DNA of 64,000 nucleotides from Acidobacteriota bacterium (lineage in GTDB: Bacteria; Acidobacteriota; Blastocatellia; Pyrinomonadales; Pyrinomonadaceae): the NCBI GenBank assembly GCA_020199775.1, contig JAIVJZ010000046.1, positions 9,011 to 73,010 on the forward strand. The letters are read 5' to 3'. Below are positions 2,559 through 62,109 of this stretch, one piece after another (the stretch's first letter is position 1; each line of letters opens with the position of its first letter). Under the pieces are notes generated by a model, which did no database searches, had not been told where the DNA came from, and saw nothing but the letters and a program-made list of their open reading frames with translations. The translations under genes and the position numbers were made by a program.

Positions 2559-3551
2559 ATGACATGGTTCCGTAAAAAGGGACAGAAGATTGAGGTGGTT
2601 CCGGCGGACGAACGCGTCGTCAAGACCGAAGGCGTCTTCCGCAAGTGCCCCGAGTGCGACGCCGCGCTCTTCAAGAAAGACCTCGAAGAATCGCTGCAAG
2701 TCTGCCCGCCGTGCGGGCACCACTTCCGCATCGGCGCGCGCGAACGCCTCGCCATCCTCTACGATAACGCCGACTACGAAGAACTCGACGCCGAGGTTAT
2801 CTCTAACGACCCGCTCAACTTCGTCGATACCAAGCCTTACCCGCAGCGTCTAGAACAGGCCAAACGCTCGACCGGGTTGCCGGAGGCGATCATCAACGCG
2901 CGCGGAAAAATCAACGGCCACACGGTCTACGCGGGCGCGATGGACTTCAGTTTCCTCGGCGGCTCGATGGGTTCGGCCGTGGGCGAGAAGGTGACGCGCC
3001 TCGTGGAGCGCGCGATCAAGGAGCGCGCGGCCGTCATCACCATCACCTCTTCCGGCGGCGCGCGCATGCAGGAAGGCACGCTCTCGCTCTTGCAGATGGC
3101 GAAAGTCTCGGCCGCGCTCGCGCAACTCGACAAGTCGCGCCTCCCCTTCATCTCCATCCTGACCGACCCGACGACGGGCGGCGTGACCGCCAGCTTCGCC
3201 ATGCTCGGCGACGTGATCATCGCCGAGCCGAAAGCCCTGATCGGTTTCGCCGGGCCGCGCGTCATCGAACAGACCATCCGCCAGAAGTTGCCCAAAGATT
3301 TCCAACGCTCCGAATTCCTGCTCGAACACGGCATGCTCGACGCCGTCGTTGACCGGCGCGAGATGCGCCCTCTCATCGTCAAGCTGCTCGAATTTATGGT
3401 GAACCCCGAAATCAACGCGCCGCTGCTCGACGTGGACATCAACTTCGCCGGAGGCCAGAACGGCTACAACGCCAAGACCGCCGCAACGTTGCTTAAAGAG
3501 CAACCGTCCGAGGCAACTGTTCCCGGTTCTAAATCGCCGGCCGATAAGTAG
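2559..3551 (+). CDS. accD: Acetyl-CoA carboxylase carboxyltransferase beta subunit
   Basis: N-terminal zinc ribbon CPECDAALF...CPPCGHHFRI, then GGSMGSAVGEK, SGGARMQEG and TDPTTGGVTASFA motifs. Confidence 0.93.
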   Translation: MTWFRKKGQKIEVVPADERVVKTEGVFRKCPECDAALFKKDLEESLQVCPPCGHHFRIGARERLAILYDNADYEELDAEVISNDPLNFVDTKPYPQRLEQAKRSTGLPEAIINARGKINGHTVYAGAMDFSFLGGSMGSAVGEKVTRLVERAIKERAAVITITSSGGARMQEGTLSLLQMAKVSAALAQLDKSRLPFISILTDPTTGGVTASFAMLGDVIIAEPKALIGFAGPRVIEQTIRQKLPKDFQRSEFLLEHGMLDAVVDRREMRPLIVKLLEFMVNPEINAPLLDVDINFAGGQNGYNAKTAATLLKEQPSEATVPGSKSPADK

Positions 3552-3596
3552 GCGTCCCGGCTCTCGCCATCCCCTCAGGGCAAATAAACTTCGCTC

Positions 3597-4925
3597 ATGC
3601 ACTTTGACGAAGCGGTCAACTATCTCCACGGCCTCGGCCACGAAACCCTCGCGATCAAACTCGGCCTCGACAATATCGAGCGACTGCTCGCCGCGTTGGG
3701 GTCTCCCGAACGCGCCTACCCCGCCGTCCAGATCGCGGGCACGAACGGCAAGGGCTCGACCGCCGCGATGCTCGACGGCATCTGCCGCGCCTCCGGCGTG
3801 CGCGCCGGTCTCTACGTTTCCCCGCACCTCGTCTCGATTACCGAACGTATACGCATCGACGGGCGCGACATCACGCGCGCGGATTTCGCACGCCTCGCCA
3901 CACTCGTCCGCGCCGCTTCGACCGGGTTAAAAACCGCGACGGGCGCGCTGCCCACGTTCTTCGAGCAAGTGACGGCCATCGCGCTCGTCGCCTTCCACGA
4001 GGCGCGGGTCGAACTCGCCATCCTCGAAACCGGCCTCGGCGGGCGGCTTGACGCGACGACCGCCGCACGCGCCGACGTGCTCGCCATCACGCCCATCGCC
4101 CTCGACCATCAGGAATATCTCGGCGACACGCTTCAAGCGATAGCCTCGGAGAAGGCCGCCATCATCCGCACGGGCGCGGCGGTGGCGGTCGTCGTCGCGC
4201 CGCAACCCGAAGCGGCGCGCACTGTCGTGCTCGCGCGCTGCCGCGAGTGTCACGTCACGCCGCGCTTCGCGACCGAAGACATCCGCGTACACGGCGCGGA
4301 CGCGTCGGGTCGCATGTGCTTGACGTTCGACACGGGGGCGGACGTTTACGACAATGTCCGCCTGTCGCTGCGCGGCCGCCATCAGGCGACGAACGCCGCC
4401 GTCGCCGTAGGCGTCGCGGAAGTCTTGCGCGAACGCGGTTTTCCCATCACGCGCGCCGCGGTCGTCGAAGGACTCGAAACCGCCGAACACGCCGGACGCC
4501 TCGAACTCATTGCCGGTCAACCTTCCCTGCTCTTCGACGGCGCGCACAACGCGGCGGGCGCGCGCGCGCTGCGCGACTACCTCGACGAATTCGCCCGCGC
4601 GCCCGTCACGCTCGTCTTCGGCGCGATGCGTGATAAAGATTTGGGCGAGATCGCGGCGACGATCTTTCCGGCGGCCGACAAGTTGATCCTGACGCGGCCA
4701 ACCAACCCGCGCGCCGCCACGCTCGACGCGCTCGCTTCCCTCGCCGCGACGCGCGACGTTAACAGGCCGCCGATTCTCACAGAGACGCCCGCCGGAGCCC
4801 TGCGCGCGGCCGTGGAGTGTACGCCGCCCGGAGGGATCATCTGCGTCACGGGGTCGCTCTATCTCGTCGGCGAAGTTAAGAGTCTCTTGGCAGAGCGCGA
4901 GCGCAAGTTGAATCGAGAAGCATAA
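3597..4925 (+). CDS. folC: Bifunctional folylpolyglutamate synthase / dihydrofolate synthase
   Basis: Mur-ligase P-loop AGTNGKGSTAAMLDGI, LETGLGGRLDATT, C-terminal DGAHNAAGARAL. Length and pattern typical of FolC. accD-folC adjacency is common. Confidence 0.88.
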   Translation: MHFDEAVNYLHGLGHETLAIKLGLDNIERLLAALGSPERAYPAVQIAGTNGKGSTAAMLDGICRASGVRAGLYVSPHLVSITERIRIDGRDITRADFARLATLVRAASTGLKTATGALPTFFEQVTAIALVAFHEARVELAILETGLGGRLDATTAARADVLAITPIALDHQEYLGDTLQAIASEKAAIIRTGAAVAVVVAPQPEAARTVVLARCRECHVTPRFATEDIRVHGADASGRMCLTFDTGADVYDNVRLSLRGRHQATNAAVAVGVAEVLRERGFPITRAAVVEGLETAEHAGRLELIAGQPSLLFDGAHNAAGARALRDYLDEFARAPVTLVFGAMRDKDLGEIAATIFPAADKLILTRPTNPRAATLDALASLAATRDVNRPPILTETPAGALRAAVECTPPGGIICVTGSLYLVGEVKSLLAERERKLNREA

Positions 4926-5548: not shown

Positions 5549-5667
5549 AGGGTATCGGGAACAGGGTGAAGGGTAAGGGGGAAGGGGTAAAGGTTAAAAA
5601 CAAGAAGGCGCGTTTATCGTGCGCCGCTCGCTTTCATCCTTTACCCTTTCCCCTTACCCTTTACCCT
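5543..5667. repeat. Heptamer-armed hairpin, word GGGTGAA/GGGTAAA/GGGGAAG
   Basis: Eight in-phase heptamers at 5543-5598 (gggtgaa gggtatc gggaaca gggtgaa gggtaag ggggaag gggtaaa ggttaaa). Right arm about 5636-5667 (tttaccc tttcccc ttaccc tttaccc). The first unit contains the NUDIX stop (5546-5548). Loop core 5596-5628 is identical to 9728-9760. Confidence 0.85.
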
Positions 5668-5680
5668 TGCTTGCTTCCGG

Positions 5681-9643: not shown

Positions 9644-9812
9644 CGGGAAAAGGGATAAAGGGGAAATGCTCAAGGGCGATGGGGAAAGGGTAAAGGGGGA
9701 AAGGGTAAGGGGGGAAAGGGTAAGGGTAAAAACAAGAAGGCGCGTTTATCGTGCGCCGCTTGCTTTCCACCTTTACCCTTTCCCCTTTACCCTTTCCTCT
9801 TCCCTTATCCCC
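9644..9812. repeat. Heptamer-armed hairpin, word GGGTAAA/GGGGAAA (same family and orientation as 5543-5667)
   Basis: G-rich arm 9644-9730 (…ggggaaa gggtaaa gggggaa agggtaa ggggggaaa gggtaag ggtaaaa). Core 9728-9760 aaaaacaagaaggcgcgtttatcgtgcgccgct is identical to 5596-5628. C-rich arm 9768-9812. Ends 6 nt before the pilT stop. Confidence 0.85.
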
Positions 9813-24323: not shown

Positions 24324-24437
24324 GCGAAGTGAATGGGTCAGGGGTACAGGTGAAAAGGAAAAAGGGGAAAGGAAAACTGAATGTGCCAAAGTCGCATTTT
24401 ACCCTTCCCCTTTTACCCTTCCCCTCTGACCCTTCGC
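24324..24437. repeat. Heptamer-armed hairpin, GGGTxxx/GGGGAAA family, in a divergent promoter region
   Basis: gcgaagtgaatgggtcaggggtacaggtgaaaaggaaaaaggggaaaggaaaac ... ttttacccttccccttttacccttcccctctgacccttcgc. Lies between the S41 gene start (24170, minus) and the RHH gene start (24587, plus). Confidence 0.8.
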
Positions 24438-25652: not shown

Positions 25653-27092
25653 TTGTCCGCTAGTTTCACACTGCCGCATATCCCCATCGAACAGTTCACG
25701 CTGGAGAACGGCCTGCGCGTCGTCCTGAGCGAAGACCACAGCGTCCCGGTCGTCTCGGTCTGCGTCTATTACGATGTCGGGTCGCGCAACGAACGCGAGG
25801 GGCGCACGGGCTTCGCGCACCTCTTCGAGCACATGATGTTTCAGGGCTCGGAGAACGTGCCGAAGGCCGCGCACTTCCAGTACATCTTCAACTCCGGCGG
25901 CACGATGAACGGCACGACCTCTTCGGAACGCACCAACTACTACGAGACGCTCCCGGCCGATCAACTCCCGCTCGCGCTCTGGCTGGAAAGCGACCGCATG
26001 CGCTCGTTGAAAGTCACGCAGGAAAATCTCGACAACCAGCGCAACGCCGTGCAGGAGGAGAAACGGCTCAACTACGACAACCGCCCCTACTCCAACGCCT
26101 TCCTGCGCCTCAACGAACTGATCTACCAAAACCCCGCCAACGCGCACTCGACCATCGGCTCGATGCAAGACCTCGACGACGCGACCATCGAAGACATACG
26201 CGAGTTCTTCCGCATCTACTACGCGCCGAACAACGCCGTGCTCGTCATCGTCGGCGACTTCGACCCGGCGGAGGCGGGCGCGCTCGTCGAGAAATATTTC
26301 GCCACCATCCCGCGCCAGCCCGCGCCGCCGGGAGTTGACGTGAGCGAGCCGTCGGAAGTGGCCGCGCCGTTCGAGACGTATCCCGATCCGTTCGCGCAGC
26401 TTCCCGCCCTGATGCTCGGCTGGAAAGCGCCCGCGCGCCGCACCCCGGACGCCTACGCCCTGACTCTCGCCAGCGAACTATTGCTCGAAGGCGAAAGCTC
26501 GCGGCTCTATCAAAAACTCGTGAAGGGCGACGAGTCGGTCATCGCCGTGCAGGGCAGCATCGGCGAGCGTCGCGGCCCTTCGTCGCTCTACGTCTTCGCC
26601 ATCCCGAAGCCCGGCCGCTCGACCGACGAGATTCGCCGCGCGATCAACGAAGAGATCGCGCGCCTCGCCGCCGAAGGACCGAGCGAGGAGGAGATGGAGA
26701 AACTGCGCAACTCGCTTTTGAACGACTCCGTGCGCGGGCGCCAGACGACCATGTATCGCGCGCAGAGGCTCGCCGAGTACACGCTCTACGACGGCGACCC
26801 GCACTTCGTCAACACGGAGGTCGAACGCTACCTCGCCGTCACGCCCGACGAGATCAAGGACGCCGTGGCGCGCTACATGCGCACGGATAATCACGCCGTC
26901 ATCGAGATCATCCCCGCGCCCGAAGGCACGCGGCAGGCCGAACCGGCGGCGGACGCTGCCGCCCCGCAACAGGAAGAGGAACAGCCCGGCGCGCCGCCGC
27001 CCCAGTTGCCCCCGCGCCCGTCCACGCCGGAACCCGCCCCCCCGACCGAAACGCCGGAGACGCCAATCGCTCGAGTGACGAGTGAAAAGTGA
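25653..27092 (+). CDS. M16 family (pitrilysin) zinc peptidase, catalytic subunit
   Basis: Inverted zinc motif HxxEH in GFAHLFEHMMFQGS. Downstream NGTTSSERTNYYE. Pro-rich C-terminal tail. Confidence 0.88.
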   Translation: MSASFTLPHIPIEQFTLENGLRVVLSEDHSVPVVSVCVYYDVGSRNEREGRTGFAHLFEHMMFQGSENVPKAAHFQYIFNSGGTMNGTTSSERTNYYETLPADQLPLALWLESDRMRSLKVTQENLDNQRNAVQEEKRLNYDNRPYSNAFLRLNELIYQNPANAHSTIGSMQDLDDATIEDIREFFRIYYAPNNAVLVIVGDFDPAEAGALVEKYFATIPRQPAPPGVDVSEPSEVAAPFETYPDPFAQLPALMLGWKAPARRTPDAYALTLASELLLEGESSRLYQKLVKGDESVIAVQGSIGERRGPSSLYVFAIPKPGRSTDEIRRAINEEIARLAAEGPSEEEMEKLRNSLLNDSVRGRQTTMYRAQRLAEYTLYDGDPHFVNTEVERYLAVTPDEIKDAVARYMRTDNHAVIEIIPAPEGTRQAEPAADAAAPQQEEEQPGAPPPQLPPRPSTPEPAPPTETPETPIARVTSEK

Positions 27093-27150
27093 CGTGTGAC
27101 AAGTTAAAACTCAGAATTCGTCTTCAACTCGTCACCTGTCACCTGTCACT
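27075..27150. repeat. Heptamer-armed hairpin, word GTGACGA/GTGACAG
   Basis: Left arm gtgacga gtgaaaa gtgacgt gtgacaa gttaaaa (27075-27109). Right arm ttcaact cgtcacc tgtcacc tgtcact (27124-27150). Contains the M16 stop (27090-27092). Confidence 0.82.
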
Positions 27151-28928: not shown

Positions 28929-29054
28929 CCAGTAGCCGTCGGCCATCGGCCGTCAGCCATCAGCGGCGCGGTTCGCACCTAGGCTGCCTGAGTGTAGAGT
29001 TAATGAGGGGCAACTTAAAGCTGATTTGCTGACGGCTAACGGCTGACGGCTAAA
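28924..29054. repeat. Heptamer-armed hairpin, word GTCAGCC family
   Basis: Left arm gttagcc agtagcc gtcggcc atcggcc gtcagcc atcagc (28924-28964). Right arm gctgatt tgctgac ggctaac ggctgac ggctaaa (29020-29054). The left arm contains the M16B stop (28926-28928). Confidence 0.8.
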
Positions 29055-33090: not shown

Positions 33091-33200
33091 GGAAGGTTAA
33101 AGGGCGAAGTGGAAGGGGAAAGGAAAAGAAAACACGCTCAACCGACCGAGTGCTTTCCTTCGCCTTTCCCCTTTCCCCCTTACCCTTTGACCCTTTCCCC
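33091..33200. repeat. Heptamer-armed hairpin, GGGGAAA/GGGTAAA family
   Basis: ggaaggttaaagggcgaagtggaaggggaaaggaaaagaaaac ... ctttccttcgcctttcccctttcccccttaccctttgaccctttcccc. Ends 5 nt before the VIT-VWA stop (33206). Confidence 0.75.
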
Positions 33201-33205
33201 ATTTC

Positions 33206-35548: not shown

Positions 35549-35653
35549 AAGGGGTCTCCTCGGAAATTCAATTTGACGGGCGGGCACAATATCGGCCGCT
35601 CTCGTCTACTAGAACGGCGGCGCGAGGGTTTCTTGCGGAGAGAAGGTTAAAAG

Positions 35654-35732
35654 CCGTCAATCGTCAATCGTCAATCGTGAATAGATTAAGACAGGTTTTT
35701 TCCATTCACGATTTACGATTCACGATTTACGG
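35654..35732. repeat. Heptamer-armed hairpin, word CGTCAAT/CGTGAAT
   Basis: Left ccgtcaa tcgtcaa tcgtcaa tcgtgaa tag (35654-35684). Right ccattca cgattta cgattca cgattta cgg (35702-35732). Mismatches fall at the same position of successive heptamers. Followed by ttttggtt. Ends 9 nt before the MFS stop. Confidence 0.88.
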
Positions 35733-35741
35733 TTTTGGTTG

Positions 35742-39514: not shown

Positions 39515-39898
39515 TTAAGGAAGCGGGCGGCGCGCGGCGGCGGCTTGCGGGTCGTCGCCGGATTGTTTCGCGGCGTCCCACACGTCTATGAAAATCTCCA
39601 TCGTGCCGCCGCAAACCATCCCCTCTTCGCTGGCCTCGTCGGCCGTGAGGCTGAACTTGTGCAAGGCGGCCGCGCCCGTGCGCATCGCCTCGCGGGCTTC
39701 AGCCCAGACCTCCGCCTCGATGCAACCGCCGCCGACCGTGCCCGCCACATCGTTGTTCTCGAAAAAGAGCATCTTCGCGCCGCGCCGCTGCGGCGTCGAG
39801 CCGCGCGTGTGCGCCACCGTCGCCACGACGACGCGCTCGCCCCTCGCGTTCCGCTCCGCGATCAGACGATAAAGTTCGGCCTGTGAGATCGTACCCAT
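39515..39898 (-). CDS. XdhC N-terminal domain-only protein
   Basis: ATVAHTRGSTPQRRGAKMLF...GTVGGGCIEAEV...MVCGGTMEIFID matches the XdhC_CoxI N-domain. Confidence 0.75.
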   Translation of the reverse strand: MGTISQAELYRLIAERNARGERVVVATVAHTRGSTPQRRGAKMLFFENNDVAGTVGGGCIEAEVWAEAREAMRTGAAALHKFSLTADEASEEGMVCGGTMEIFIDVWDAAKQSGDDPQAAAARRPLP

Positions 39899-39906
39899 GA
39901 GAAGAC

Positions 39907-39988
39907 AAGGATGAACGCGGAACGCGGAACGATGAAATAAATACTCCTTGCTTTTACTTCATCGTTCATCGTTCCGCGTTCATCGTTT
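39907..39988. repeat. Heptamer-armed hairpin, word GATGAAC/GCGGAAC
   Basis: Left aag gatgaac gcggaac gcggaac gatgaaa taaa (39907-39941). Right ttttacttc atcgttc atcgttc cgcgttc atcgttt (39952-39988). Abuts the stop of the 39988-40800 gene. Confidence 0.85.
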
Positions 39989-40800
39989 CACCGTGGTGGC
40001 GGCGTGGCTGAAGGCGTGGGCGAAGGCGTGGGGCGCGGCGCGTTGAACGTGCCCGCGTCGCCGCTTTCGAGTTCGCGTTGCATCGCGTCGTCCAGTTGAC
40101 CGCGGAGACGGCTGACGAGTTGGTCGGCGTTGTTGAGTGCGGTTTCGAGGCGCGCGCGGCTTCCCTGTAGCACGTCGAGTTGCGTGCGGATGCGCCGCTT
40201 CTCGGCGTCGAGTTGGCGGCGGATCGTGTCGCGCAACTCGTCGGGGCGAAACGTCCCGGTCAGCGCGGCCTGCCGCTCGATGCTTTCGGGGCGCAACTGC
40301 TCGTCCACCCGATCCATCTGCGCCTGCAAACCGGCCTCCTTCTCCAACACGTCTCGCAGTTGCGTCTGCAAACCTTCGGCGCGCTGCTCGGCGCGCGTCA
40401 GGCGTTCCTGAATGAGATCGGTGCGCCGCTCCTTTTCAAGGTCGTCAACCTTCTTGTTGAGTTTTCCGAACTCGTCCAACAAGGTCTGCATCGTCCTGAT
40501 CGTCTCGTCCGGTTCGGGCGTCGCGGCGGGGCGGGAGCGGCGCGTGCGGTTCGTGGTCGTCGTGCCGCGCCCCTCCTCCTGCGCCGCCTGTTCCTCGGCT
40601 GTGCTGACGACGCGCGGCTCGTAGTCCGGCGTCGCTTCCGGCCGCGGCGCGGGGGTGGCGCGCACGGGGTTCGTCGCCCGCCGCGACGGACGCCTGCGTT
40701 GCTGCTGTTGCGACTGCGCCTCAAACGCTCCCCACGCCAACGCCGACAGCAAGGTCAACGCCGCGACCGATCTGAATCCTGAACGACTTCGCATCATCAA
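39988..40800 (-). CDS. Secreted coiled-coil protein, function unknown
   Basis: Signal peptide MMMRSRSGFRSVAALTLLSALAWGA, Arg/Pro/Thr-rich region, then long heptad-like helices (LQTQLRDVLEKEAGLQAQMDRVDEQL...). Confidence 0.6.
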   Translation of the reverse strand: MMMRSRSGFRSVAALTLLSALAWGAFEAQSQQQQRRRPSRRATNPVRATPAPRPEATPDYEPRVVSTAEEQAAQEEGRGTTTTNRTRRSRPAATPEPDETIRTMQTLLDEFGKLNKKVDDLEKERRTDLIQERLTRAEQRAEGLQTQLRDVLEKEAGLQAQMDRVDEQLRPESIERQAALTGTFRPDELRDTIRRQLDAEKRRIRTQLDVLQGSRARLETALNNADQLVSRLRGQLDDAMQRELESGDAGTFNAPRPTPSPTPSATPPPR

Positions 40801-44515: not shown

Positions 44516-44632
44516 ATCAGCGGTCAGCCGTCAGCCGTCAGCTTTCAGCATTAAATACATAAGATGTTTTGCTCTGAGCCATTGTAAAGGAATCAGCGGC
44601 GGTTTTCGACTGACGGCTGAAAGCTGATGGCT
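44516..44632. repeat. Heptamer-armed hairpin, word GTCAGCC (more degenerate copy)
   Basis: Left atcagcg gtcagcc gtcagcc gtcagct ttcagca (44516-44550). Right tgacggctgaaagctgatggct (44611-44632) pairs with the inner 16 nt of the left arm. Confidence 0.68.
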
Positions 44633-44688
44633 AAAAAAAAACGGATCGAGCGCGGCGGGTTGGCTGTCTCCGCCTCAACTCGATCCGT
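44633..44688 (-). terminator. Intrinsic terminator of the 44712-46364 gene
   Basis: Stem acggatcgag / ctcgatccgt with a structured loop. On the minus strand it is followed by T9-10 (plus-strand A-run 44633-44641). Confidence 0.65.
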
Positions 44689-46364: not shown

Positions 46365-46544
46365 AAACTAAACTCCTTGAGGGCGGGCGTCGTCCGGTTG
46401 GAGAACCGGGAACCTCTCGGACGATCTTTCGAGCGTGCGGTGGCGGCGCGAACGACGCGGGGCGTGAGACAACAAAATCCGGCCTGCCCTTCCGTAAACA
46501 GGCCACTATTTGAAGCTAACAGACGCGCCGACGAAGCGTCAAGA

Positions 46545-46629
46545 GAAACGATGAAGTAGGAACGATGAACGATGAAGTAAAAGCAAGTTGTCTTTACTTC
46601 ATCGTTCATCGTTCCTACTTCATCGTTTC
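46545..46629. repeat. Heptamer-armed hairpin, word GATGAAC/GATGAAG (near-perfect palindrome; close copy of 1184-1265)
   Basis: gaaacgatgaagtaggaacgatgaacgatgaagtaaaag (46545-46583) pairs with ctttacttcatcgttcatcgttcctacttcatcgtttc (46592-46629). The right arm contains the stop of the 46620-47639 gene. Confidence 0.92.
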
Positions 46630-47639
46630 CCTACCGTCACGTCGTCCGCCGTGTTCGGTTTGCCGTCCGCGCCGAGCGAGCGGAGGGTGAAGCGTTCGCG
46701 CGCGCCGACGTATTCGTAGGGGCGATGCCACGGGTCGAAGCGGATAAGCGCAGCGGTGTAATCCGGGTTGAGATGATCGACGAGGTCGGAGGCCGTTTCG
46801 GCGACGACGTAGAACCCGCGCGCGCGTCGATACTCTTCGAGCAGCGCGGCCAAACTTTCGAGGTCGGCGCGGGCGCGCGCCAGTTTCTCCGTGTTGAGCG
46901 CGCTCTCGAAAGCGTCGAACGCCTCAAAGCCGCGCCCGCCTCCGATGCGCACGCGCGCCACCTGCCAGCGTCCGCGCGCGTCGCGCACGAAATCCACGGA
47001 TGTTTCGACTTCCAACTCGACCACCGCCGCAGACCCCATCGGGGCGAGCGCGGCCGCCGGGTTCTTGACCGAGAGCGCGCCGCGCCTCAATTCCTTCGGC
47101 GGTTGGTTCTTGTCGTTGCCTATCGGTTGACTCTCCGGCGCGTCGCTTGCGGTCGCGCTCTTGTTATTGCCGAGCGCGGCGAGTTCGGCAGCGAACGCGT
47201 CGAGTTCAACGCGCGCGAATGCAAGGCCATCGCCGCCGAGCGCGCGCGCCAGCAGGTCGAACGATTCCCACTGGCGGTCGCCCGTCCTGACTTCGAGCAC
47301 GCGCCAACTGCCCGCCGCGTCTTTCACGAAACGAAAGCCCAGTTTCACGCCCGCCAGCACGGTCGCGACCGCGCCGGGCGGCGAGATTTCCTTGATCGTC
47401 ACCGCCTCTTTGTTGAGTTCGAAGAGCGACACGGCGGCGATCAGTTTGCGCGCGTCGTCCTTCTTGATGGCCTTCTCCGCGGCCGCCGTGGCGATGCCGC
47501 CCGCGCTACCGGCGGCGAACGCGCACAGCGCGGCGCAGACGCTCAGGATAAAAATCGTCCGCTGAGTTGTGTTTCTCATACGTTGGCTTGCCCGGCGTTG
47601 GATGTCGAAATCGGGTGTCGAAGAAGTATCGAAACTCAA
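46620..47639 (-). CDS. Secreted hypothetical protein with a C-terminal GspG-like (type II secretion pseudopilin C-terminal) segment
   Basis: Signal-like ILSVCAALCAFAAGSAGG. C-terminal DPWHRPYEYVG...LRSLGADGKPNTADDV resembles the T2SS_G C-terminal motif. 4-nt overlap with the upstream response regulator. Confidence 0.5.
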   Translation of the reverse strand: MSFDTSSTPDFDIQRRASQRMRNTTQRTIFILSVCAALCAFAAGSAGGIATAAAEKAIKKDDARKLIAAVSLFELNKEAVTIKEISPPGAVATVLAGVKLGFRFVKDAAGSWRVLEVRTGDRQWESFDLLARALGGDGLAFARVELDAFAAELAALGNNKSATASDAPESQPIGNDKNQPPKELRRGALSVKNPAAALAPMGSAAVVELEVETSVDFVRDARGRWQVARVRIGGGRGFEAFDAFESALNTEKLARARADLESLAALLEEYRRARGFYVVAETASDLVDHLNPDYTAALIRFDPWHRPYEYVGARERFTLRSLGADGKPNTADDVTVGKR

Positions 47640-48046: not shown

Positions 48047-48115
48047 GTGACGGGCGACAGGTGACGAGTTGAAGACAAGCTCTTTTGTTTTAACTCGTCA
48101 CCTGTCGCCCATCAC
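48047..48115. repeat. Heptamer-armed hairpin, word GTGACGG/GCGACAG/GTGACGA (same family as 27075-27150, opposite orientation)
   Basis: gtgacgg gcgacag gtgacga gttgaag (48047-48074) pairs with ttttaactcgtcacctgtcgcccatcac (48088-48115), 1 mismatch in 24. The right arm contains the pdxA stop (48098-48100). Confidence 0.88.
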
Positions 48116-49773: not shown

Positions 49774-50019
49774 TTTTTTACTTATGCCTCCAACAGTCGT
49801 ACAAGCAGGAAAACGGCGCGCTGAATTTTGAATACCCCGACTCTCTACGGACGAGTTGCCAAACAAATGGCGCGCTTGGATGCGCCTGCTTTTACAGGCG
49901 GTGGTCGTTTGCAAGACGAGAACGGTTATTGTCTCGTTAGTTTTGAATTACAATCCTGTCAGGAATGGGCGACATGCTACACGAGCAACGTTAGTTTGGC
50001 AAGCCTCACGCGCCGGGAA

Positions 50020-50144
50020 GCAGTCAGCCGTCAGCTATCAGCCATCAGCGGAAAAGAAGTAGAGCCGTGAGTGAATCAGCATCGGCTGAATCTGCTCACG
50101 GCTCAATGTTTATTGCTGACGGCTGATAGCTGATGGCTGACTGC
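50020..50144. repeat. Heptamer-armed hairpin, word GTCAGCC, with a second hairpin in the loop
   Basis: gcagtcagccgtcagctatcagccatcagc (50020-50049) pairs with gctgacggctgatagctgatggctgactgc (50115-50144): 28/30 paired, the 2 mismatches 14 nt apart. Inner hairpin gagccgtgag...ctcacggctc at 50062-50104. Abuts the ftsZ stop. Confidence 0.92.
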
Positions 50145-51340
50145 TAATCGGCCTTCTTGCGGATGAAGGCGGGCACGTCCAGATCGTCGGAGCGCGTCTG
50201 CCCGGCGGCGGTGCTGCGCGACGGCAACTCGTCGGTGCGCGGCAGGTAACGCGGCTGCGCCGCCGGCATCACGTTCGGGTTCGTGACGAGACCGGCGTCA
50301 GCGGATTCTTTGTCGAAGCCCGTCGCGATGACCGTGATCTTCATCTCGTCGCGCATGGTCTCGTCGATCACCGCGCCGAAGATGATGTTGGCGTCCTCGT
50401 CGGCCGCCTCGCGGATAATCGAAGAGGCTTCGTTGACTTCAAACAGCGTCAGGTCTAGGCCGCCCGTGATGTTGATGAGCACGCCCTTCGCGCCGTTGAT
50501 CGACGCCTCTTCCAGCAGGGGCGAAGAGATCGCTTCCTGCGTCGCCTTGAGCGCGCGGTCTTCTCCGCTCGCGCGTCCCGCGCCCATCAAGGCCATGCCC
50601 ATCCCGGCCATGATCGATTTCACGTCGGCGAAGTCGAGGTTGATGAGGCCGGGCACGGTGATCAAGTCGCTGATGCCCTGCACGGCTTGCCGGAGCACGT
50701 CGTCCGCCATCTTGAAGGCGTCCGTCAGAGACATATCTTTGGTCACGTTGCCGAGCAGACGCTCGTTCGGGATCGTGATGACCGTGTCCACACACTCGCG
50801 CAGTTCCCTCAAGCCCTGATCGCCCTGCTGCATGCGCCGCTTGCCTTCAAAGTGAAACGGCTTCGTGACGACGGCGACCGTCAACGCGTTCAACTCCGTC
50901 GCAAGGCTCGCGATGATCGGCGCCGCGCCCGTGCCCGTGCCGCCGCCGAGGCCGGTCGTGACGAAGACCATGTCCGCGCCTTCCAGAGCCTCGATGATCT
51001 TCTCCGTGTCTTCGAGCGCGGCGTTGCGTCCCACGTCGGGGTTCGCGCCCGCGCCCAGTCCTTTCGTCAACTTGCCGCCGAGTTGAATCTTGATCGGCGC
51101 GCGCGAACGCTTCAACGCCTGCAAGTCGGTGTTGGCGACGAGGAACTCGATGCCCTCTATTCCGGCCTCAATCATGCGGTTGACGGCGTTGCCCCCGCCG
51201 CCGCCCACGCCGATCACTTTGATGCGCGCGCCGGTGATCGGAGGATCGTCGTCTATGAAAATATTAATGCCACTGCCCGGCTGACGGCTTTCCGGTGTCA
51301 TATCGTATAAGTCCTTTCCTCTTCTGTGAACGCCCGCCAC
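50144..51340 (-). CDS. ftsZ: Cell division protein FtsZ
   Basis: [29 protein letters not shown] (tubulin signature), C-terminal [10 protein letters not shown] peptide. GTG start. Confidence 0.96.
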
Positions 51341-54105: not shown

Positions 54106-55137
54106 TCAGCCGCGTTGTTCCTCTGCGTCAGTCGTACTCTGCCCGCCCTGCGTCTCTTCGCCGGAAGTCGTCCCGGCCGCTTCGCGCGTGTCGCTGCTGC
54201 GCCACAGTTCCACTTCGTACTCCAACTCGATGCCGCGCTCGCGGCGTATGCGTTCCCTGATCTCTTCGGCCAGCGCGAAGGCGTCCGAGGCGCGCGCGTC
54301 GTCGCCCTCGGTCACGATGAAATTCGCGTGGACGGGCGAGACGACCGCGCCGCCGCGCTTCTCGCCCTTCATCCCCATCTCGTCGATCATCTTCCCCGTG
54401 CTCAAACCGCTGCCCGGCGGGTTCTTGAAGAAGCACCCGGCGGAACGCGCGCCGTGCGGCTGCGTCTCCATCCTCTGACGCTTCACTTCCGCCATCCGTT
54501 CCACGATCTTCGCCGAGTCGTCCTTTCGCAAACGGAGCGTCACGCCCAACAGCAACTCGCCCTCGCGAAAGGAGGTGTGCCGGTAGTTCCAACTGATCTC
54601 GCCGCCGCGCACGTTGACCACGCGCCCGCCGCGCGCCACGCGCACCGTCTCCACGACGTTCCCGATCTCGTGCCCGTACGCGCCCGCGTTCATCCAGAGC
54701 GCGCCGCCGACCGTGCCCGGGATGCCGCCCAAGCCTTCGATCCCCGCGAGGCCGCGCCGCGCCGCGTCCACGCACAGGCGCGGCAGCGAATAGCCCGCGC
54801 TCACGCTCACGCGCTCGCCCTCGAACAAGGCCGTCCCCTTCACCTCGCGCATGCTCACGACGACGTAATGATGATCCTCGTCGTCGGCCAGCACATTGCT
54901 GCCCGCGCCGAGCACGCGCCACGCTATCCCTGCCGCTTCCAGTTCACCGGCAACCGCCGCCGCCGCTTCCTCCGTCTCCGGCGCGAACACCCAATCAATC
55001 GCCCCCCCGACGCGCAAACTCGTCAACTCGGCGAAACGCCGCCCGCGCTCCGCGCGCACGCCCACTCTGGCCGCGATCTCTTCGATCACCGCGTCGCGTT
55101 CAGTGAGGCTCATCGCGCTTTGCGTCATCGTCGTCAT
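54106..55137 (-). CDS. murB: UDP-N-acetylenolpyruvoylglucosamine reductase
   Basis: FAD-binding [35 protein letters not shown]. 4-nt overlap with murC. Confidence 0.9.
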
Positions 55138-56546
55138 TTGCCGTCGCCCGCGCCGTTGCCGTTCTTGTTGAGCAGTTCGATCAACTCTTCGCCCGCGCGA
55201 TAGACGTTGCCCGCGCCGAGCGTGATCACCATGTCGCCGTTGTGCGCCTCGCTGAGTAAGGCCTTGACGGCCGTGTCGAGCGAGCCGACGTAGAAAGTGT
55301 TCTTGTGGCCGTAGCGTTTCACCGCCTCGACCAGAGCCTCCGCCGTGACGCCCGGAATCGGGTCTTCGCTCGCCGCATAGATGTCCGATACGAGGAGCAC
55401 GTCGGCGTTATTGAACGAGCGCGCAAACTCGTCCATCTGATCCTGCGTCCGCGTGTAGCGGTGCGGCTGAAAGAGCACGACCATGCGGCGACCCGAAGAG
55501 CCGATCTTGGCGGCGGCGAGCGTCGCGCGAATCTCCGTCGGGTGATGCCCGTAGTCGTCCACGACGAGCACGCCGCGCGCCTCGCCCTTGAATTGAAAGC
55601 GGCGGTTGACGCCCGTGTACGCGCCCAAGCCCTCGACGGTCTTTTCAAACGGCGCGTCCAACTCGAAGCTGATCGCGATGGCCGCCAGCGCGTTGTAGAC
55701 GTTGTGCAAACCCGGCACGCGCAGCGTCGCCTCGCCCATCACCTCGTGTCCCCGCCAGACCGTGAAGCGCGAGCCGAACGGGATGTCGAAGCGGATGCCG
55801 TGCGCCGAAACGTCGGCCTGCGCGCTCAAGCCGTAAGTGATGCGCCGCCGCTTGACGTGCGGGATCACCGCCTGCACGTAAGGGTCGTCGAGACACAGCA
55901 CCGACGCGCCGTAGAACGGCACTTTGTTGACGAACCGGATGAAGCAGTCCTGCATGTCTTCCATGTCGCGGTAGTAGTCCATGTGCTCGCGGTCGATGTT
56001 CGTGACGACCGTGAAGGTCGGCGCGAGCATAAGAAACGACCTGTCGCTTTCGTCCGCTTCGACCACCATCAAATCGCTCTTGCCCAGACGCGCGTTCGAC
56101 CCGAAGGCCCCCACCACGCCGCCGACGACGACCGTCGGGTCGAGTCCGGCCGCGCCGAGGATCATCCCGATCATCGAAGTGGTCGTCGTCTTCCCGTGCG
56201 AGCCTGCGACGGCGACCGTGTCCCGCTTGAGTCGCATCAACTCGGCCAGCATCTCCGCCCGCGCGATGACCGGAATGGAACGCTCGCGCGCGTCCATCAA
56301 CTCCGTGTTGTCGTCGCGCACGGCGGTCGAACGAACCACCACCTGCGCGTCGCCCACGTTCTCCGCGCGGTGTCCCTCTTTGAACTCCACGCCCAGTCCT
56401 TCCAAACGCTCCGTCACCGCCGAACGCTTCATGTCCGAACCCGACACGCGGAACCCGAGGTTGCACAACACCTCCGCGATGCCGGACATGCCGATCCCGC
56501 CGATCCCCACCAGATGAACGTGTCGGATGCGATGAAACATCATCAA
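55134..56546 (-). CDS. murC: UDP-N-acetylmuramate--L-alanine ligase
   Basis: [40 protein letters not shown]. Start is TTG 56546 or ATG 56543/56540. Confidence 0.93.
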
Positions 56547-56552
56547 TCCGTA

Positions 56553-56581
56553 GTGAGCAGTGAGCAGTAAGCAGTAAGCAG
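56553..56581. repeat. Left arm of a heptamer hairpin (word GTGAGCA/GTAAGCA) that encloses a gene
   Basis: gtgagca gtgagca gtaagca gtaagca g. Starts 7 nt upstream of the murC start region. Pairs 27/29 with 56985-57013. Confidence 0.88.
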
Positions 56582-56598
56582 TTTTAAATTCAAGAGCT

Positions 56599-56964
56599 TC
56601 ATTGATTACTACCTATCGACTTCTTAAGCCCGTAAGTTAAAGCCAAACACTCATCTAATAAACGTTGTGCTTCAAGTGAAGCGTTCTCGCAGAGATGCCC
56701 GACGCGATATGCGATCTCAAGTTGCGTGCTCACCTCATTGAGTGAACCGACGGCAATCCCCAAGAAATTCTTGAACTGATCGTTCGACCGACCCCCTGCC
56801 CCTTCACTAATATTTGACGGCACGGAAACCGCTGCTCGTCGAAGTTGCGAAGTCAATCCATAGATTTCCTCTTTGGGGAATCTTTTAGTGAGATCGTAAA
56901 TCAACACAACTAGCTCCATGCTCTTCTGCCACGCAACAAGCCTTTTGTGTGGTTTCTCCATCAT
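56599..56964 (-). CDS. Four-helix-bundle protein, 23S rRNA intervening-sequence protein family (PF05635/TIGR02436-like; Avd-like fold)
   Basis: [89 protein letters not shown] is the family pattern (FP..E.y.L..Q.rRAa.Si..NIaEG..r.s..ef..fl.iA.GS..E). Visibly lower GC than its neighbours. Confidence 0.88.
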
Positions 56965-56984
56965 AACCTCAGCTCCGGCTTTGA

Positions 56985-57013
56985 CTGCTTACTGCTCACT
57001 GCTTACTGCTCAC
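56985..57013. repeat. Right arm of the gene-enclosing heptamer hairpin
   Basis: ctgctta ctgctca ctgctta ctgctca c. Contains the murG stop (56996-56998). Confidence 0.88.
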
Positions 57014-58075
57014 CAATCGTTCAATCAAATCAACCGTCAGCCCGGCGGCGTTCGGGCGTGCCATCCGGCGGCTCGCCTGTTCGCGGCGCGTGATTTCATC
57101 CGGGTCGTCTACAAGCGCGGCGATCTCGCGCGCCAACGCTTCGCCCGTCAGGTTCTCTTGCAGGATCATGCGGGCGGCGTTCGCCTCCTGCAACACTTCG
57201 GCGTTGCGTTGTTGTTCGAGTTGGCCGGGGAGCGGGATCATGATCGCCGTCTTGCCCGCCGCCATCAACTCGGCGGCCGTCGTCGCCCCGGCGCGCGAGA
57301 CGATCAGGTCGGCGGCGGCAAAGGCCGCAACCATGTCGTCTATGTACTCGCGCACTTCGCTGCTTCCCGCCCAGCCCGCCTCGCCGTAACCCTTCCGCAC
57401 CGTCTCGAAATCGAGTTTGCCCGTCTGGTGCGTGATGTGCAGCACGTCGCGGTGCGCGGCGAGATGCGGCAAGGCCGCGACCATCGCGTTGCTCACCGCC
57501 CGCGCGCCCTGCGACCCGCCGAAGAGCAGCAAAGAAAAACGCGAAGGGTCGCGCATTTTTGCCGGAATGTCAAAGAACTCGCGCCGCACGGGATTTCCGG
57601 TCACAATCGCCTTGCCGCGAAAATATGGCAACGTCGCTTCAAACGAGACGGTCGCCGCATCGACGAACCGTGCGAGCCTGCGGTTGGTAAAACCGGGCAC
57701 GGCGTTCGACTCCATGACGAGTGTCGGGATGCGCATCAGCGCGGCCGTCAACAACACCGAACCCGTCACGTAACCGCCCGCGCCGACCACCACGTCCGGG
57801 CGAAACTCGCGGACAAGCGCGCGCGCCGCCGCGAAACTCTTCGGCAGCAGCCACAAGCCCCTGAGTCGCGCGCCGAGCGACATGTTCGTCAGCCCCGCGC
57901 TTTCAATGAGCGACAACTCGAACCCCGCCTGCGGCACGAGCCGCGTCTCCAACCCGCGCGCCGTGCCCACGAACCGCACCGCCGTTTGCGTGTGACGACT
58001 CGTCAACTCTTTCGCCACGGCGAGCGCGGGGTAGATGTGCCCGCCCGTCCCGCCGGCGGCGAAGAGAGCGCGCAT
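56996..58075 (-). CDS. murG: Undecaprenyldiphospho-muramoylpentapeptide beta-N-acetylglucosaminyltransferase
   Basis: ATG 58075 gives MRALFAAGGTGGHIYPALAVAKEL. Also GGSQGA and SRAGATTAAELMAAGK. The upstream 120 codons of the ORF overlap ftsW and were discarded. Confidence 0.92.
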   Translation of the reverse strand: MRALFAAGGTGGHIYPALAVAKELTSRHTQTAVRFVGTARGLETRLVPQAGFELSLIESAGLTNMSLGARLRGLWLLPKSFAAARALVREFRPDVVVGAGGYVTGSVLLTAALMRIPTLVMESNAVPGFTNRRLARFVDAATVSFEATLPYFRGKAIVTGNPVRREFFDIPAKMRDPSRFSLLLFGGSQGARAVSNAMVAALPHLAAHRDVLHITHQTGKLDFETVRKGYGEAGWAGSSEVREYIDDMVAAFAAADLIVSRAGATTAAELMAAGKTAIMIPLPGQLEQQRNAEVLQEANAARMILQENLTGEALAREIAALVDDPDEITRREQASRRMARPNAAGLTVDLIERLVSSKQ

Positions 58076-59307: not shown

Positions 59308-59393
59308 GGGTTTCAAGTTTCAGGTTTCAAGTTTCAAGTCCGAAAGGTCTTCGTTCTTTAACTTGAAACCTGAAACCTGAGACTTGAAACTTC
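59308..59393. repeat. Heptamer-armed hairpin, word GTTTCAA/GTTTCAG (same family as 688-769)
   Basis: Left gg gtttcaa gtttcag gtttcaa gtttcaa gtc (59308-59340). Right taacttgaaacctgaaacctgagacttgaaacttc (59359-59393). The right arm encodes the last 11 codons of murD (...LRFQVSS) plus its stop. Confidence 0.88.
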
Positions 59394-61955: not shown

Positions 61956-62109
61956 AAACGAGGAACGCGGAACGATGAATGATGAAGTGAAAGAGATTGA
62001 TTCATTGATTCATTGATTCAATGAAGAAATTAAAGATTGAATCAATGAGCCGATGAATCAATGAATCAATCTCTCTAGTTCATCGTTCCGCGTTCATCCT
62101 TCATCGTTT
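61956..62109. repeat. Nested double hairpin: outer GATGAAC/GCGGAAC-word arms enclosing an inner TGATTCA-word hairpin
   Basis: Outer arms 61956-61995 and 62071-62109. Inner element 61996-62070 = attgatt cattgat tcattga ttcaatg ... attgaatcaatgagccgatgaatcaatgaatcaat. The outer right arm contains the murF stop (62094-62096). Confidence 0.88.

Follow-up and report, generated by a model that had tools for sequence, protein, structure and literature searches.

Among the intervening sequences (IVSs) of 23S rRNA genes, that of Coxiella has a 28-bp terminal stem, which is cleaved by RNase III in vitro, and two to three GACAGAT heptamers, in strain-variable copy number, upstream of an S23p open reading frame (ORF); the ORF has been reported as probably unexpressed and decaying, and the element is regarded as selfish, its mobility being unknown (PMC4990558). 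The papers that name the corresponding protein family, PF05635, describe its function as uncharacterised; one member, XCC0516, is a homopentameric toroid (PMC4990558), and the family consensus includes the motif GxxRxxxSxxxNxxE (PMC3936711). Heptanucleotide repeats form a separate literature: the Xanthomonas word GGGAATC occurs in 70–75 convergent pairs per genome (PMC4692102), and the papers on such repeats read them as G-quadruplexes or translational regulators and leave PF05635 unmentioned. Finally, the Avd pentamer in the ribonucleoprotein of diversity-generating retroelements (DGRs) binds a defined RNA element adjoining its own gene. Here we analyse a stretch of 64,000 nt from an Acidobacteriota bacterium (contig JAIVJZ010000046.1, positions 9,011 to 73,010; hereafter the window), in which the whole murG–murC spacer of the dcw (division and cell wall) operon is occupied by an intact cassette consisting of a PF05635 gene between two inverted arrays of heptamers (the arms). 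Since it lies outside rRNA, and thus lacks one defining feature of IVSs, we file it as an IVS-type cassette in mRNA operons.

We consider it likely, with a probability of roughly 0.7, that the gene and its arms are a heritable, occasionally relocating cassette, which rides on host operon transcripts and is tolerated as the arms keep the upstream termination and the downstream initiation.

The cassette between murG and murC

The arms and the gene all have minus-strand coordinates, hence 57013–56984 is the 5′ arm and 56582–56553 the 3′ arm in the mRNA. In the order of transcription the features are as follows:

56996..58075, minus strand: murG, the upstream host gene, ending within the 5′ arm; its counterpart on the syntenic P0005 contig has Glyco_transf_28 domains
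56984..57013, minus strand: 5′ arm, in mRNA sense GTGAGCA GTAAGCA GTGAGCA GTAAGCA GT, which contains the final five codons of MurG (VSSKQ) and its TGA stop
56965..56983, minus strand: inner 5′ spacer CAAAGCCGGAGCTGAGGTT, which contains the Shine-Dalgarno-like motif GAGG of the cassette gene
56599..56964, minus strand: PF05635/TIGR02436 four-helix-bundle gene ('23S rRNA intervening sequence protein'), 121 aa, assigned by profile matches
56583..56598, minus strand: inner 3′ spacer, from the cassette stop codon to the 3′ arm
56553..56582, minus strand: 3′ arm, in mRNA sense ACTGCTT ACTGCTT ACTGCTC ACTGCTC AC, pairing 28/30 with the 5′ arm
56541..56552, minus strand: leader from the 3′ arm to the murC start, 6–12 nt, without a Shine-Dalgarno motif
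55134..56540, minus strand: murC, the downstream host gene

The original prediction for this locus had described arms of 29 nt paired at 27 positions, a loop with a single 121-aa gene on the murG/murC strand, a murG stop codon supplied by one arm, and a murC start so close to the other that no room is left for a Shine-Dalgarno sequence, and our measurements bear out this description. The arms are 30 nt each and 93% complementary, with 401 nt between them, which is essentially equal to the predicted values, and the loop contains one ORF only (56964..56599, minus). The TGA of murG (56998–56996) lies inside the 5′ arm, and MurG ends in ...VSSKQ*. The candidate murC starts are TTG 56546, ATG 56543 and ATG 56540, i.e. 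6, 9 and 12 nt past the 3′ arm, with no Shine-Dalgarno-like run between the arm and these codons; ATG 56540 (MFHRI) is the one that agrees with homologues, the MFH.. start being present in the closest related locus (L001) and in other relatives. Each arm comprises four units of GTGAGCA/GTAAGCA (word GTRAGCA). The sequence GTRAGCAGTRAGCA has six matches in the window, every one within the two arms (0.01 in shuffled sequence), and no further GTRAGCA array was found in the window outside them.

Profile searches assigned the ORF to the IVS-protein family, as had been anticipated, with scores far over the curated cut-offs (PF05635: E = 6e-35, 120.1 bits, cut-off 33.8; TIGR02436: E = 9e-34, 116 bits, cut-off 24). 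Translation probably begins at the second ATG (56961), as in the homologues, which gives 120 aa. Residues R43, S47, N51 and E54, which form the RxxxSxxxNxxE part of the consensus motif, are present in the cassette protein and are invariant or nearly so in the homologue alignment. The AlphaFold2 model (predicted local distance difference test score, pLDDT: 92.7) has four helices, and the structure comparison with Foldseek identified XCC0516 (2GSC, template modelling (TM) score 0.89) and BT_0352 (2RLD, TM 0.84) as the best matches, both with five chains in the database entry; the sequence identity of 50% to pentameric 2GSC (E = 9e-39) suggests that the cassette protein is likewise a homopentamer. 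The next structural matches are to Avd in the DGR ribonucleoprotein (8UB7, 4DWL); Avd is positively charged, whereas the charge of the cassette protein, counted from its sequence, is near neutral. At E ≤ 5 the Pfam matches comprise IVP (PF05635), bAvd and a few weak unrelated families, with no HEPN-like or enzymatic relative and no HUH or Y1 transposase features. A PADLOC search with the protein gave no match, and a profile hidden Markov model search of the six-frame translation found no second PF05635 copy in the window. The GC content of the gene was expected to lie below that of the mur genes and does so: 46.7% (49% at third codon positions, GC3), compared with 64.4% (GC3 87%) in murC and 66.2% (GC3 82.5%) in murG.

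The scan for promoter-like sites between 55000 and 59500 found none. It also found no terminator-like site at the arms, and one weak antisense match within the ORF; with TACGGATTGATG directly past the 3′ arm, the arms do not make an intrinsic terminator. Lacking a promoter and a terminator of its own, the cassette is probably co-transcribed within the dcw mRNA. The minimum-energy structure predicted for the RNA from 56535 to 57030 (minus strand) retains the closing stem (z = -5.3), and no Rfam family matched the region 56300–57300. A stem of about 30 bp would be a canonical RNase III substrate, as in the rRNA IVSs, and we give roughly even odds to its processing by this enzyme. On the dcw mRNA the arms would pair into this stem, and the cassette gene would be translated from its own GAGG ribosome-binding site. 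The helicase behaviour of the ribosome is established, and from it we infer that the stem would be opened by ribosomes that reach the murG stop within the 5′ arm, making accessible both the cassette ribosome-binding site and the murC start, which is devoid of a Shine-Dalgarno sequence. Since the murG stop falls within the 5′ arm and murC begins just past the 3′ arm, termination should thus free the downstream starts, and the expression of the host operon would survive the insertion. The names murD, ftsW, murG, murC and murB in this minus-strand cluster were taken from Pfam domains of the P0005 contig; the ORFs downstream of murB are presumably ftsQ, ftsA and ftsZ, to judge from the ORFs alone.

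Gene and arms form one heritable unit at several operon junctions

The closest homologues of the cassette protein (those with a named source come from Pyrinomonadaceae or other Acidobacteriota) were traced to their contigs, where they lie at the following sites:

murG–murC: L001 (93% identical), L181 (88%) and the P0005 contig (85%, gene order only)
lspA–lgt: L002 (80% identical)
small ORF (orf87)–gatB: L182 (76% identical)
2-oxoacid dehydrogenase E1alpha–E1beta: L183/184 (73% identical)
after an FtsX-type permease: L185/186 (77% identical)

GTRAGCR arms of 25–39 nt are present at every homologous copy with readable DNA, i.e. at five operon junctions and at 73–93% protein identity. In alignments across sites the similarity is limited by the outer edges of the 5′ and 3′ arms, beyond which lie host genes with no relation to one another; the inner spacers show little conservation between sites, and the 5′ spacer is kept in L001. 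The gene and its arms are therefore one heritable unit, placed at different operon junctions in related genomes. The original prediction was right in placing the gene inside the loop of a heptamer hairpin; its implication that the gene was dropped into a pre-existing hairpin gives way to a picture in which gene and arms travel together. A frameshifted PF05635 gene, 70% identical and with GTRAGCR arms (L008, positions 2976–3421), was also observed on a 230-kb contig of a metagenome-assembled genome labelled Thermodesulfovibrionales, and may represent either a transfer of the cassette across phyla or a mistake in binning.

At the murG–murC junction the cassette has been inherited vertically along with its neighbours, since its synonymous divergence (dS) between the window and L001 (0.51) is close to that of murC (0.46) and of the 3′ end of murG (0.58). 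The ratio of non-synonymous to synonymous divergence in the same comparison is 0.08, by which measure the cassette protein is under strong purifying selection. Despite the vertical descent its GC3 is still 35–50 points under that of the host. The same tendency is seen at large: in 75 of 76 loci (L001–L082 and the window) the GC content of the PF05635 gene is lower than that of its flanks (mean 44% vs 52%), and it correlates with host GC (r = 0.92). A low GC content that persists through a dS of about 0.5 of vertical descent points to constraint, not to recent acquisition.

In a metagenome scan for relatives of MurG (best identity 75%), none of the 80 loci had a PF05635 gene between murG and murC. 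The junction in these relatives nearly always has a heptamer array or hairpin, with a lineage-specific word:

L083: GTTAGCY, loop 60 nt
L085/86: TCAGARA, loop 68 nt
L087: CATTTTC, loop 46 nt
L090: GTCAGTT, loop 47 nt
L101: AATTACG, loop 24 nt
L109: GTGGGTA, loop 49 nt

One of them, L084 (MurG 69% identical), carries an empty GTRAGCR hairpin with a loop of 62 nt at this very junction; its MurG ends in ...VSSKR* and its murC starts 7 nt past the arm. L183 has, in addition to its cassette, a second GTRAGCR hairpin, empty, 1 kb downstream. Filled and empty forms of one hairpin family thus coexist, and may reflect either the filling or the emptying of loops. The L094 junction was considered as a deletion remnant of the cassette, with which it shares the word of the 3′ arm, and rejected, as the loop alignment is unconvincing. 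A different arrangement was noted between murG and murC of L088 (~3575–3720), where two unrelated, non-complementary arrays adjoin, GAAGGCA with about 9 units followed by CACTGAC with about 10.

Period-7 arrays at PF05635 genes and in the window

The original prediction linked this protein family in general with heptamer hairpins, and the association holds across phyla, on viral contigs and on cyanobacterial plasmids. We used the homologue alignment as a query against one genome per GTDB species and obtained 80 loci (46–70% identity) from Acidobacteriota, Pseudomonadota, Bacteroidota, Planctomycetota, Chloroflexota, Nitrospirota, Elusimicrobiota and groups of the Candidate Phyla Radiation, among others; this and all other samples were drawn by likeness to the subfamily of the cassette, and genes at the loci were called by a crude picking of ORFs. 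For the best inverted repeat that spans the ORF we obtained a score of at least 12 in 48 of 81 loci; shifted pseudo-ORF controls reach no more than 13, with a 99th percentile of 11. Arrays of period 7 are present in 57% of 150 PF05635 flanks and in 1.7% of 410 control segments; periods 4–6 and 8–11 reach 0–3% in the same flanks. At least one flanking array was found in 61 of 76 loci, and 37 have arrays on both sides, the words being complementary in 32 of these. Arrays occur in 53% of the intergenic regions adjacent to PF05635 genes and in 11% of the others in the same loci, and the association stands 3–5 times above the same-locus intergenic background and about 30 times above random segments. 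In the IMG/VR collection of viral contigs arrays accompany about 13 of 18 PF05635 loci, and in PLSDB, where the plasmids concerned are almost all cyanobacterial, they were found at 7 of 7 inspected loci, in contexts that include cas10–cmr3, cas6–cas4 (twice) and parA–parB. At the PF05635 gene of X. arboricola (L014) the flanking word is GGGAATC, which is the generic one in Xanthomonas.

A search of the open-access literature found no paper that states the general association of heptamer arrays with PF05635 genes; the sole hint was the remark on GACAGAT in Coxiella, where the heptamers are taken for a peculiarity of that site, and within that literature the generalisation appears to be undescribed. 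PF05635 genes within cas operons have been reported as CRISPR-associated. In three of the cyanobacterial plasmids (L189, L190 and L192) such genes lie in cas operons with heptamer arrays at each; in the Pseudanabaena plasmid L192 (~1100–1660, cas6–cas4) the gene lies between direct arrays, AAAAGCT x14 upstream and AAAAGCC x10 downstream. These arrangements suggest that the PF05635 genes in cas operons are cassettes inserted at operon junctions, and such insertion may be behind the scoring of the family as 'CRISPR-associated' in published surveys, as well as behind its recurrence in restriction-modification and housekeeping operons, with which it is likewise scored as 'associated'.

The setting of the arrays within operons resembles that in the dcw cluster. 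In 59 of 71 loci the PF05635 gene has the same orientation as the gene upstream, and in 56 of 73 the same as the gene downstream; the upstream stop codon lies within the 5′ array, or at most 10 nt before it, in 29 of 38 loci, and the downstream ATG at most 15 nt past the 3′ array in 22 of 28. The commonest array length is four units (median 30.5 nt). The 44 unique words can be aligned on A(34) G(43) T(32), after which four positions vary, with an information content of 3.95 bits (3.05 +/- 0.14 for letter-shuffled words); AG is found in 38 of the 44 words and CT in 5. Read on the strand that runs towards the gene, 57 of 98 arrays (~58%) contain AGT and 4 contain ACT. Protein similarity tracks word similarity (Mantel r = 0.17, attained in 0 of 2000 permutations): among pairs with at least 70% protein identity 68% agree at six or more of the seven word positions, and among pairs below 45% identity only 2% do so. 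Stop codons in all three frames were considered as a designed property of the arms, and this idea was dropped, since 60% of the 5′ arrays have them and so do about 50% of letter-shuffled words. In L061, a gammaproteobacterial GDP-sugar operon, the flanking word, GTGAGGY/CCTCACG, recurs within coding sequences (647–671, 956–1003 and 4093–4119); these copies are in-frame multiples of 21 nt that encode LTPHASP repeats, in the ORF 112–1647 (511 aa) and in the ORF 3351–4367 that follows the PF05635 gene, which we take from their translations to be manC-like and fcl-like, respectively.

The window itself contains, besides the cassette, about 17–18 further heptamer hairpins, with an overall density of arrays of about 0.23 per kb:

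693–770, 1184–1265, 2355–2497, 5562–5669, 9678–9802, 24353–24435: heptamer hairpins
27072–27149, 28934–29053, 33159–33205, 35650–35736, 39907–39987, 44517–44636: heptamer hairpins
46542–46632, 48047–48115, 50012–50152, 59310–59392, 61957–62108: heptamer hairpins

Their loops are 1–97 nt long, and some six words recur (GTTTCAR, AACGATG, GCCGTCA, GGGTAAA, CGAGTGA and CGTCAAT). Nearly all of them lie between co-directional genes, with the upstream stop in or beside the 5′ arm and the downstream start 5–16 nt past the 3′ arm, as exemplified by murD–ftsW (59310–59392) and by the junction at 27072–27149. The AACGATG hairpins (1175–1275, 39898–39996 and 46533–46641) represent a single element of about 85 nt in dispersed copies; as they match also in their non-periodic parts, they form a family of the kind of repetitive extragenic palindromic (REP) sequences or miniature transposable elements with inverted repeats (MITEs) and are not the result of local slippage. 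A hairpin of an 8-nt unit, ATTGATTC (61992–62074), is the sole non-heptamer array hairpin seen in the window.

Alternative explanations and relation to known systems

Several observations weigh against the reading of gene and arms as a relocating cassette with a paired stem on host transcripts. Transition mismatches of the G–U type between the arms show no strand bias (69 sense, 67 antisense), and the sequence in which unit variants follow one another in the two arms gives no better pairing than permuted orders do, hence complementarity may be a by-product of facing arrays of the same word. As far as the sequences tell, exact pairing is not visibly selected; conservation extends to the period, the AGT core, the convergent polarity and the sharing of one word by the two sides. 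Convergent (AGTNNNN)n arrays are therefore a more fitting description of the arms than a stem under selection for exact pairing; a bare RNase III stem explains neither the fixed 7-nt period nor the AGT core. In about one third of the loci there is an array on one side only, and in L026, L045, L058, L071 and L192 the arrays are direct, not inverted. Terminal inverted repeats, as expected of a transposon or MITE, are present; no target-site duplication is visible at the seven insertion sites, and the unit has no transposase of its own, although one may be supplied in trans. Exchange between same-word hairpins by recombination within the arms would be the simplest route of movement that fits the data. 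Vertical descent and purifying selection, finally, are equally compatible with a useful and with a selfish gene.

Some of these points would find an explanation if the PF05635 pentamer were the trans-acting partner of heptamer arrays genome-wide, reading one AGT/AGU core in every 7 nt of single-stranded RNA or DNA; the gene would then lie between its own binding sites and either autoregulate or maintain and spread the hairpins, much as a REP-associated tyrosine transposase (RAYT) gene lies between its own REP sequences. We regard this as a tentative proposal that is rather unlikely to be correct. A pentamer reading AGTNNNN arrays would account for the fixed period and for a core common to 44 otherwise unrelated words, which a plain stem would not; rings that read repeats have parallels in HutP on (UAGNNNN)3 and TRAP on GAG/UAG repeats. 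Such a partner would fit the peak of array length at four units, or about 30 nt, the five chains of the closest structures (2GSC and 2RLD, the former being the toroid XCC0516), the binding of an RNA element by the homologous Avd pentamer, and the correlation between proteins and words. Heptamer arrays are also present elsewhere in 25 of 73 PF05635 loci compared with 5 of 50 distant MurG loci (about three times more arrays), 18 of the 49 other arrays in PF05635 loci (37%) have the word of the PF05635 gene, against a null expectation of 5.6%, and the further hairpins of the window share the junction geometry of the cassette. On the other hand, the window has about six other recurring words, no other GTRAGCA array and only one PF05635 gene; the words switch between some proteins that are 68–76% identical; the protein, with its near-neutral charge, differs from Avd, which is positively charged; and AGT is found in no more than some 58% of the arrays. 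Equally speculative is the wider claim that PF05635 is the missing protein partner of bacterial heptanucleotide repeats, such as the short tandemly repeated repetitive sequences (STRRs), GGGAATC and TAACTGA, which it might bind, process or propagate as (AGTNNNN)n arrays or hairpins in the operons of Acidobacteriota, Cyanobacteria, Xanthomonas, Bacteroidota and other groups, the 23S IVSs and the dcw cassette being gene-carrying 'master' copies. That an unrelated small gene, acquired horizontally, simply landed in one common junction hairpin with no link between the two is highly improbable: heptamer arrays are indeed frequent in the window, and the murG–murC junctions of relatives nearly always carry one, with other words, but the same word accompanies the gene at five different sites, and the association exceeds both the intergenic and the random background, across phyla and in three independent collections. 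We attach almost no weight to the idea of a DGR remnant or satellite, i.e. an Avd gene without its reverse transcriptase. The fold is Avd-like, and there are weak matches to Avd profiles (PF22296, E = 0.0035; NF033474, E = 0.0025; PHROG 3206, E = 4e-6), yet the scores of about 18 bits are far from the cut-offs of 40 (PF22296) and 80 (NF033474), no reverse-transcriptase candidate was seen among the ORFs listed between 54000 and 60000 (of which the cassette ORF only was searched against the family library), and the other copies of the cassette also lie between housekeeping genes.

These findings bring together two puzzles that are more than 30 years old, namely the nature of the ORFs in 23S IVSs and the abundance of tandem 7-nt repeats in many bacteria. 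A gene for an IVS protein bracketed by convergent AGTNNNN arrays is found in mRNA operons as well as in rRNA, in many phyla, and such arrays also form hairpins without a gene in the same stop-to-start geometry; the PF05635 protein and the AGTNNNN array are thus a concrete candidate for a protein–nucleic acid pair. Moreover, an essential operon, dcw, tolerates an insertion of 460 nt that replaces its normal stop codon and ribosome-binding spacer.

With respect to described systems, the likeness to ORF-bearing 23S IVSs, on which the original prediction had built, is confirmed by the stem, the heptamers and the S23p ORF of the Coxiella element (PMC4990558). The IVSs of Coxiella burnetii (helix 45) and Leptospira share with the cassette an S23p/PF05635 ORF in the loop, an inverted-repeat stem of about 28–30 bp, heptamers at the 5′ end and a GC content under that of the host. 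They differ in position, as they lie in an rRNA helix (9, 25 or 45) and the cassette between murG and murC; four 23S rRNA motifs were sought in all fetched loci and none was found. The Coxiella ORF is reported to be probably unexpressed and decaying, whereas the cassette protein is under strong purifying selection, and the cleavage of the Coxiella stem by RNase III has been demonstrated in vitro, whereas that of the cassette stem is a prediction. The heptanucleotide repeats (STRRs of cyanobacteria, GGGAATC of Xanthomonas, GGGGA(C/T)T of Nostoc and TAACTGA of Beggiatoaceae) resemble our arrays in being intergenic, tandem 7-nt units with genome- or lineage-specific words and frequent convergent inverted pairs; they differ in that the arrays of the cassette bracket a gene, with the AGT core directed towards it. 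In REP/RAYT systems, including hairpins formed by REP doublets (REPINs), a gene likewise lies between inverted copies of a short repeat, and the same repeat forms hairpins without the gene, as in L084 and L183; the cassette, however, has tandem heptamers in place of single palindromes and codes for a 120-aa four-helix bundle without HUH or tyrosine-transposase features. Avd appears, from the modelled structure, to share a homologous pentameric four-helix-bundle fold with the cassette protein, but it is accompanied by a reverse transcriptase and by template and variable repeats, whereas the neighbours of the cassette are murG and murC.

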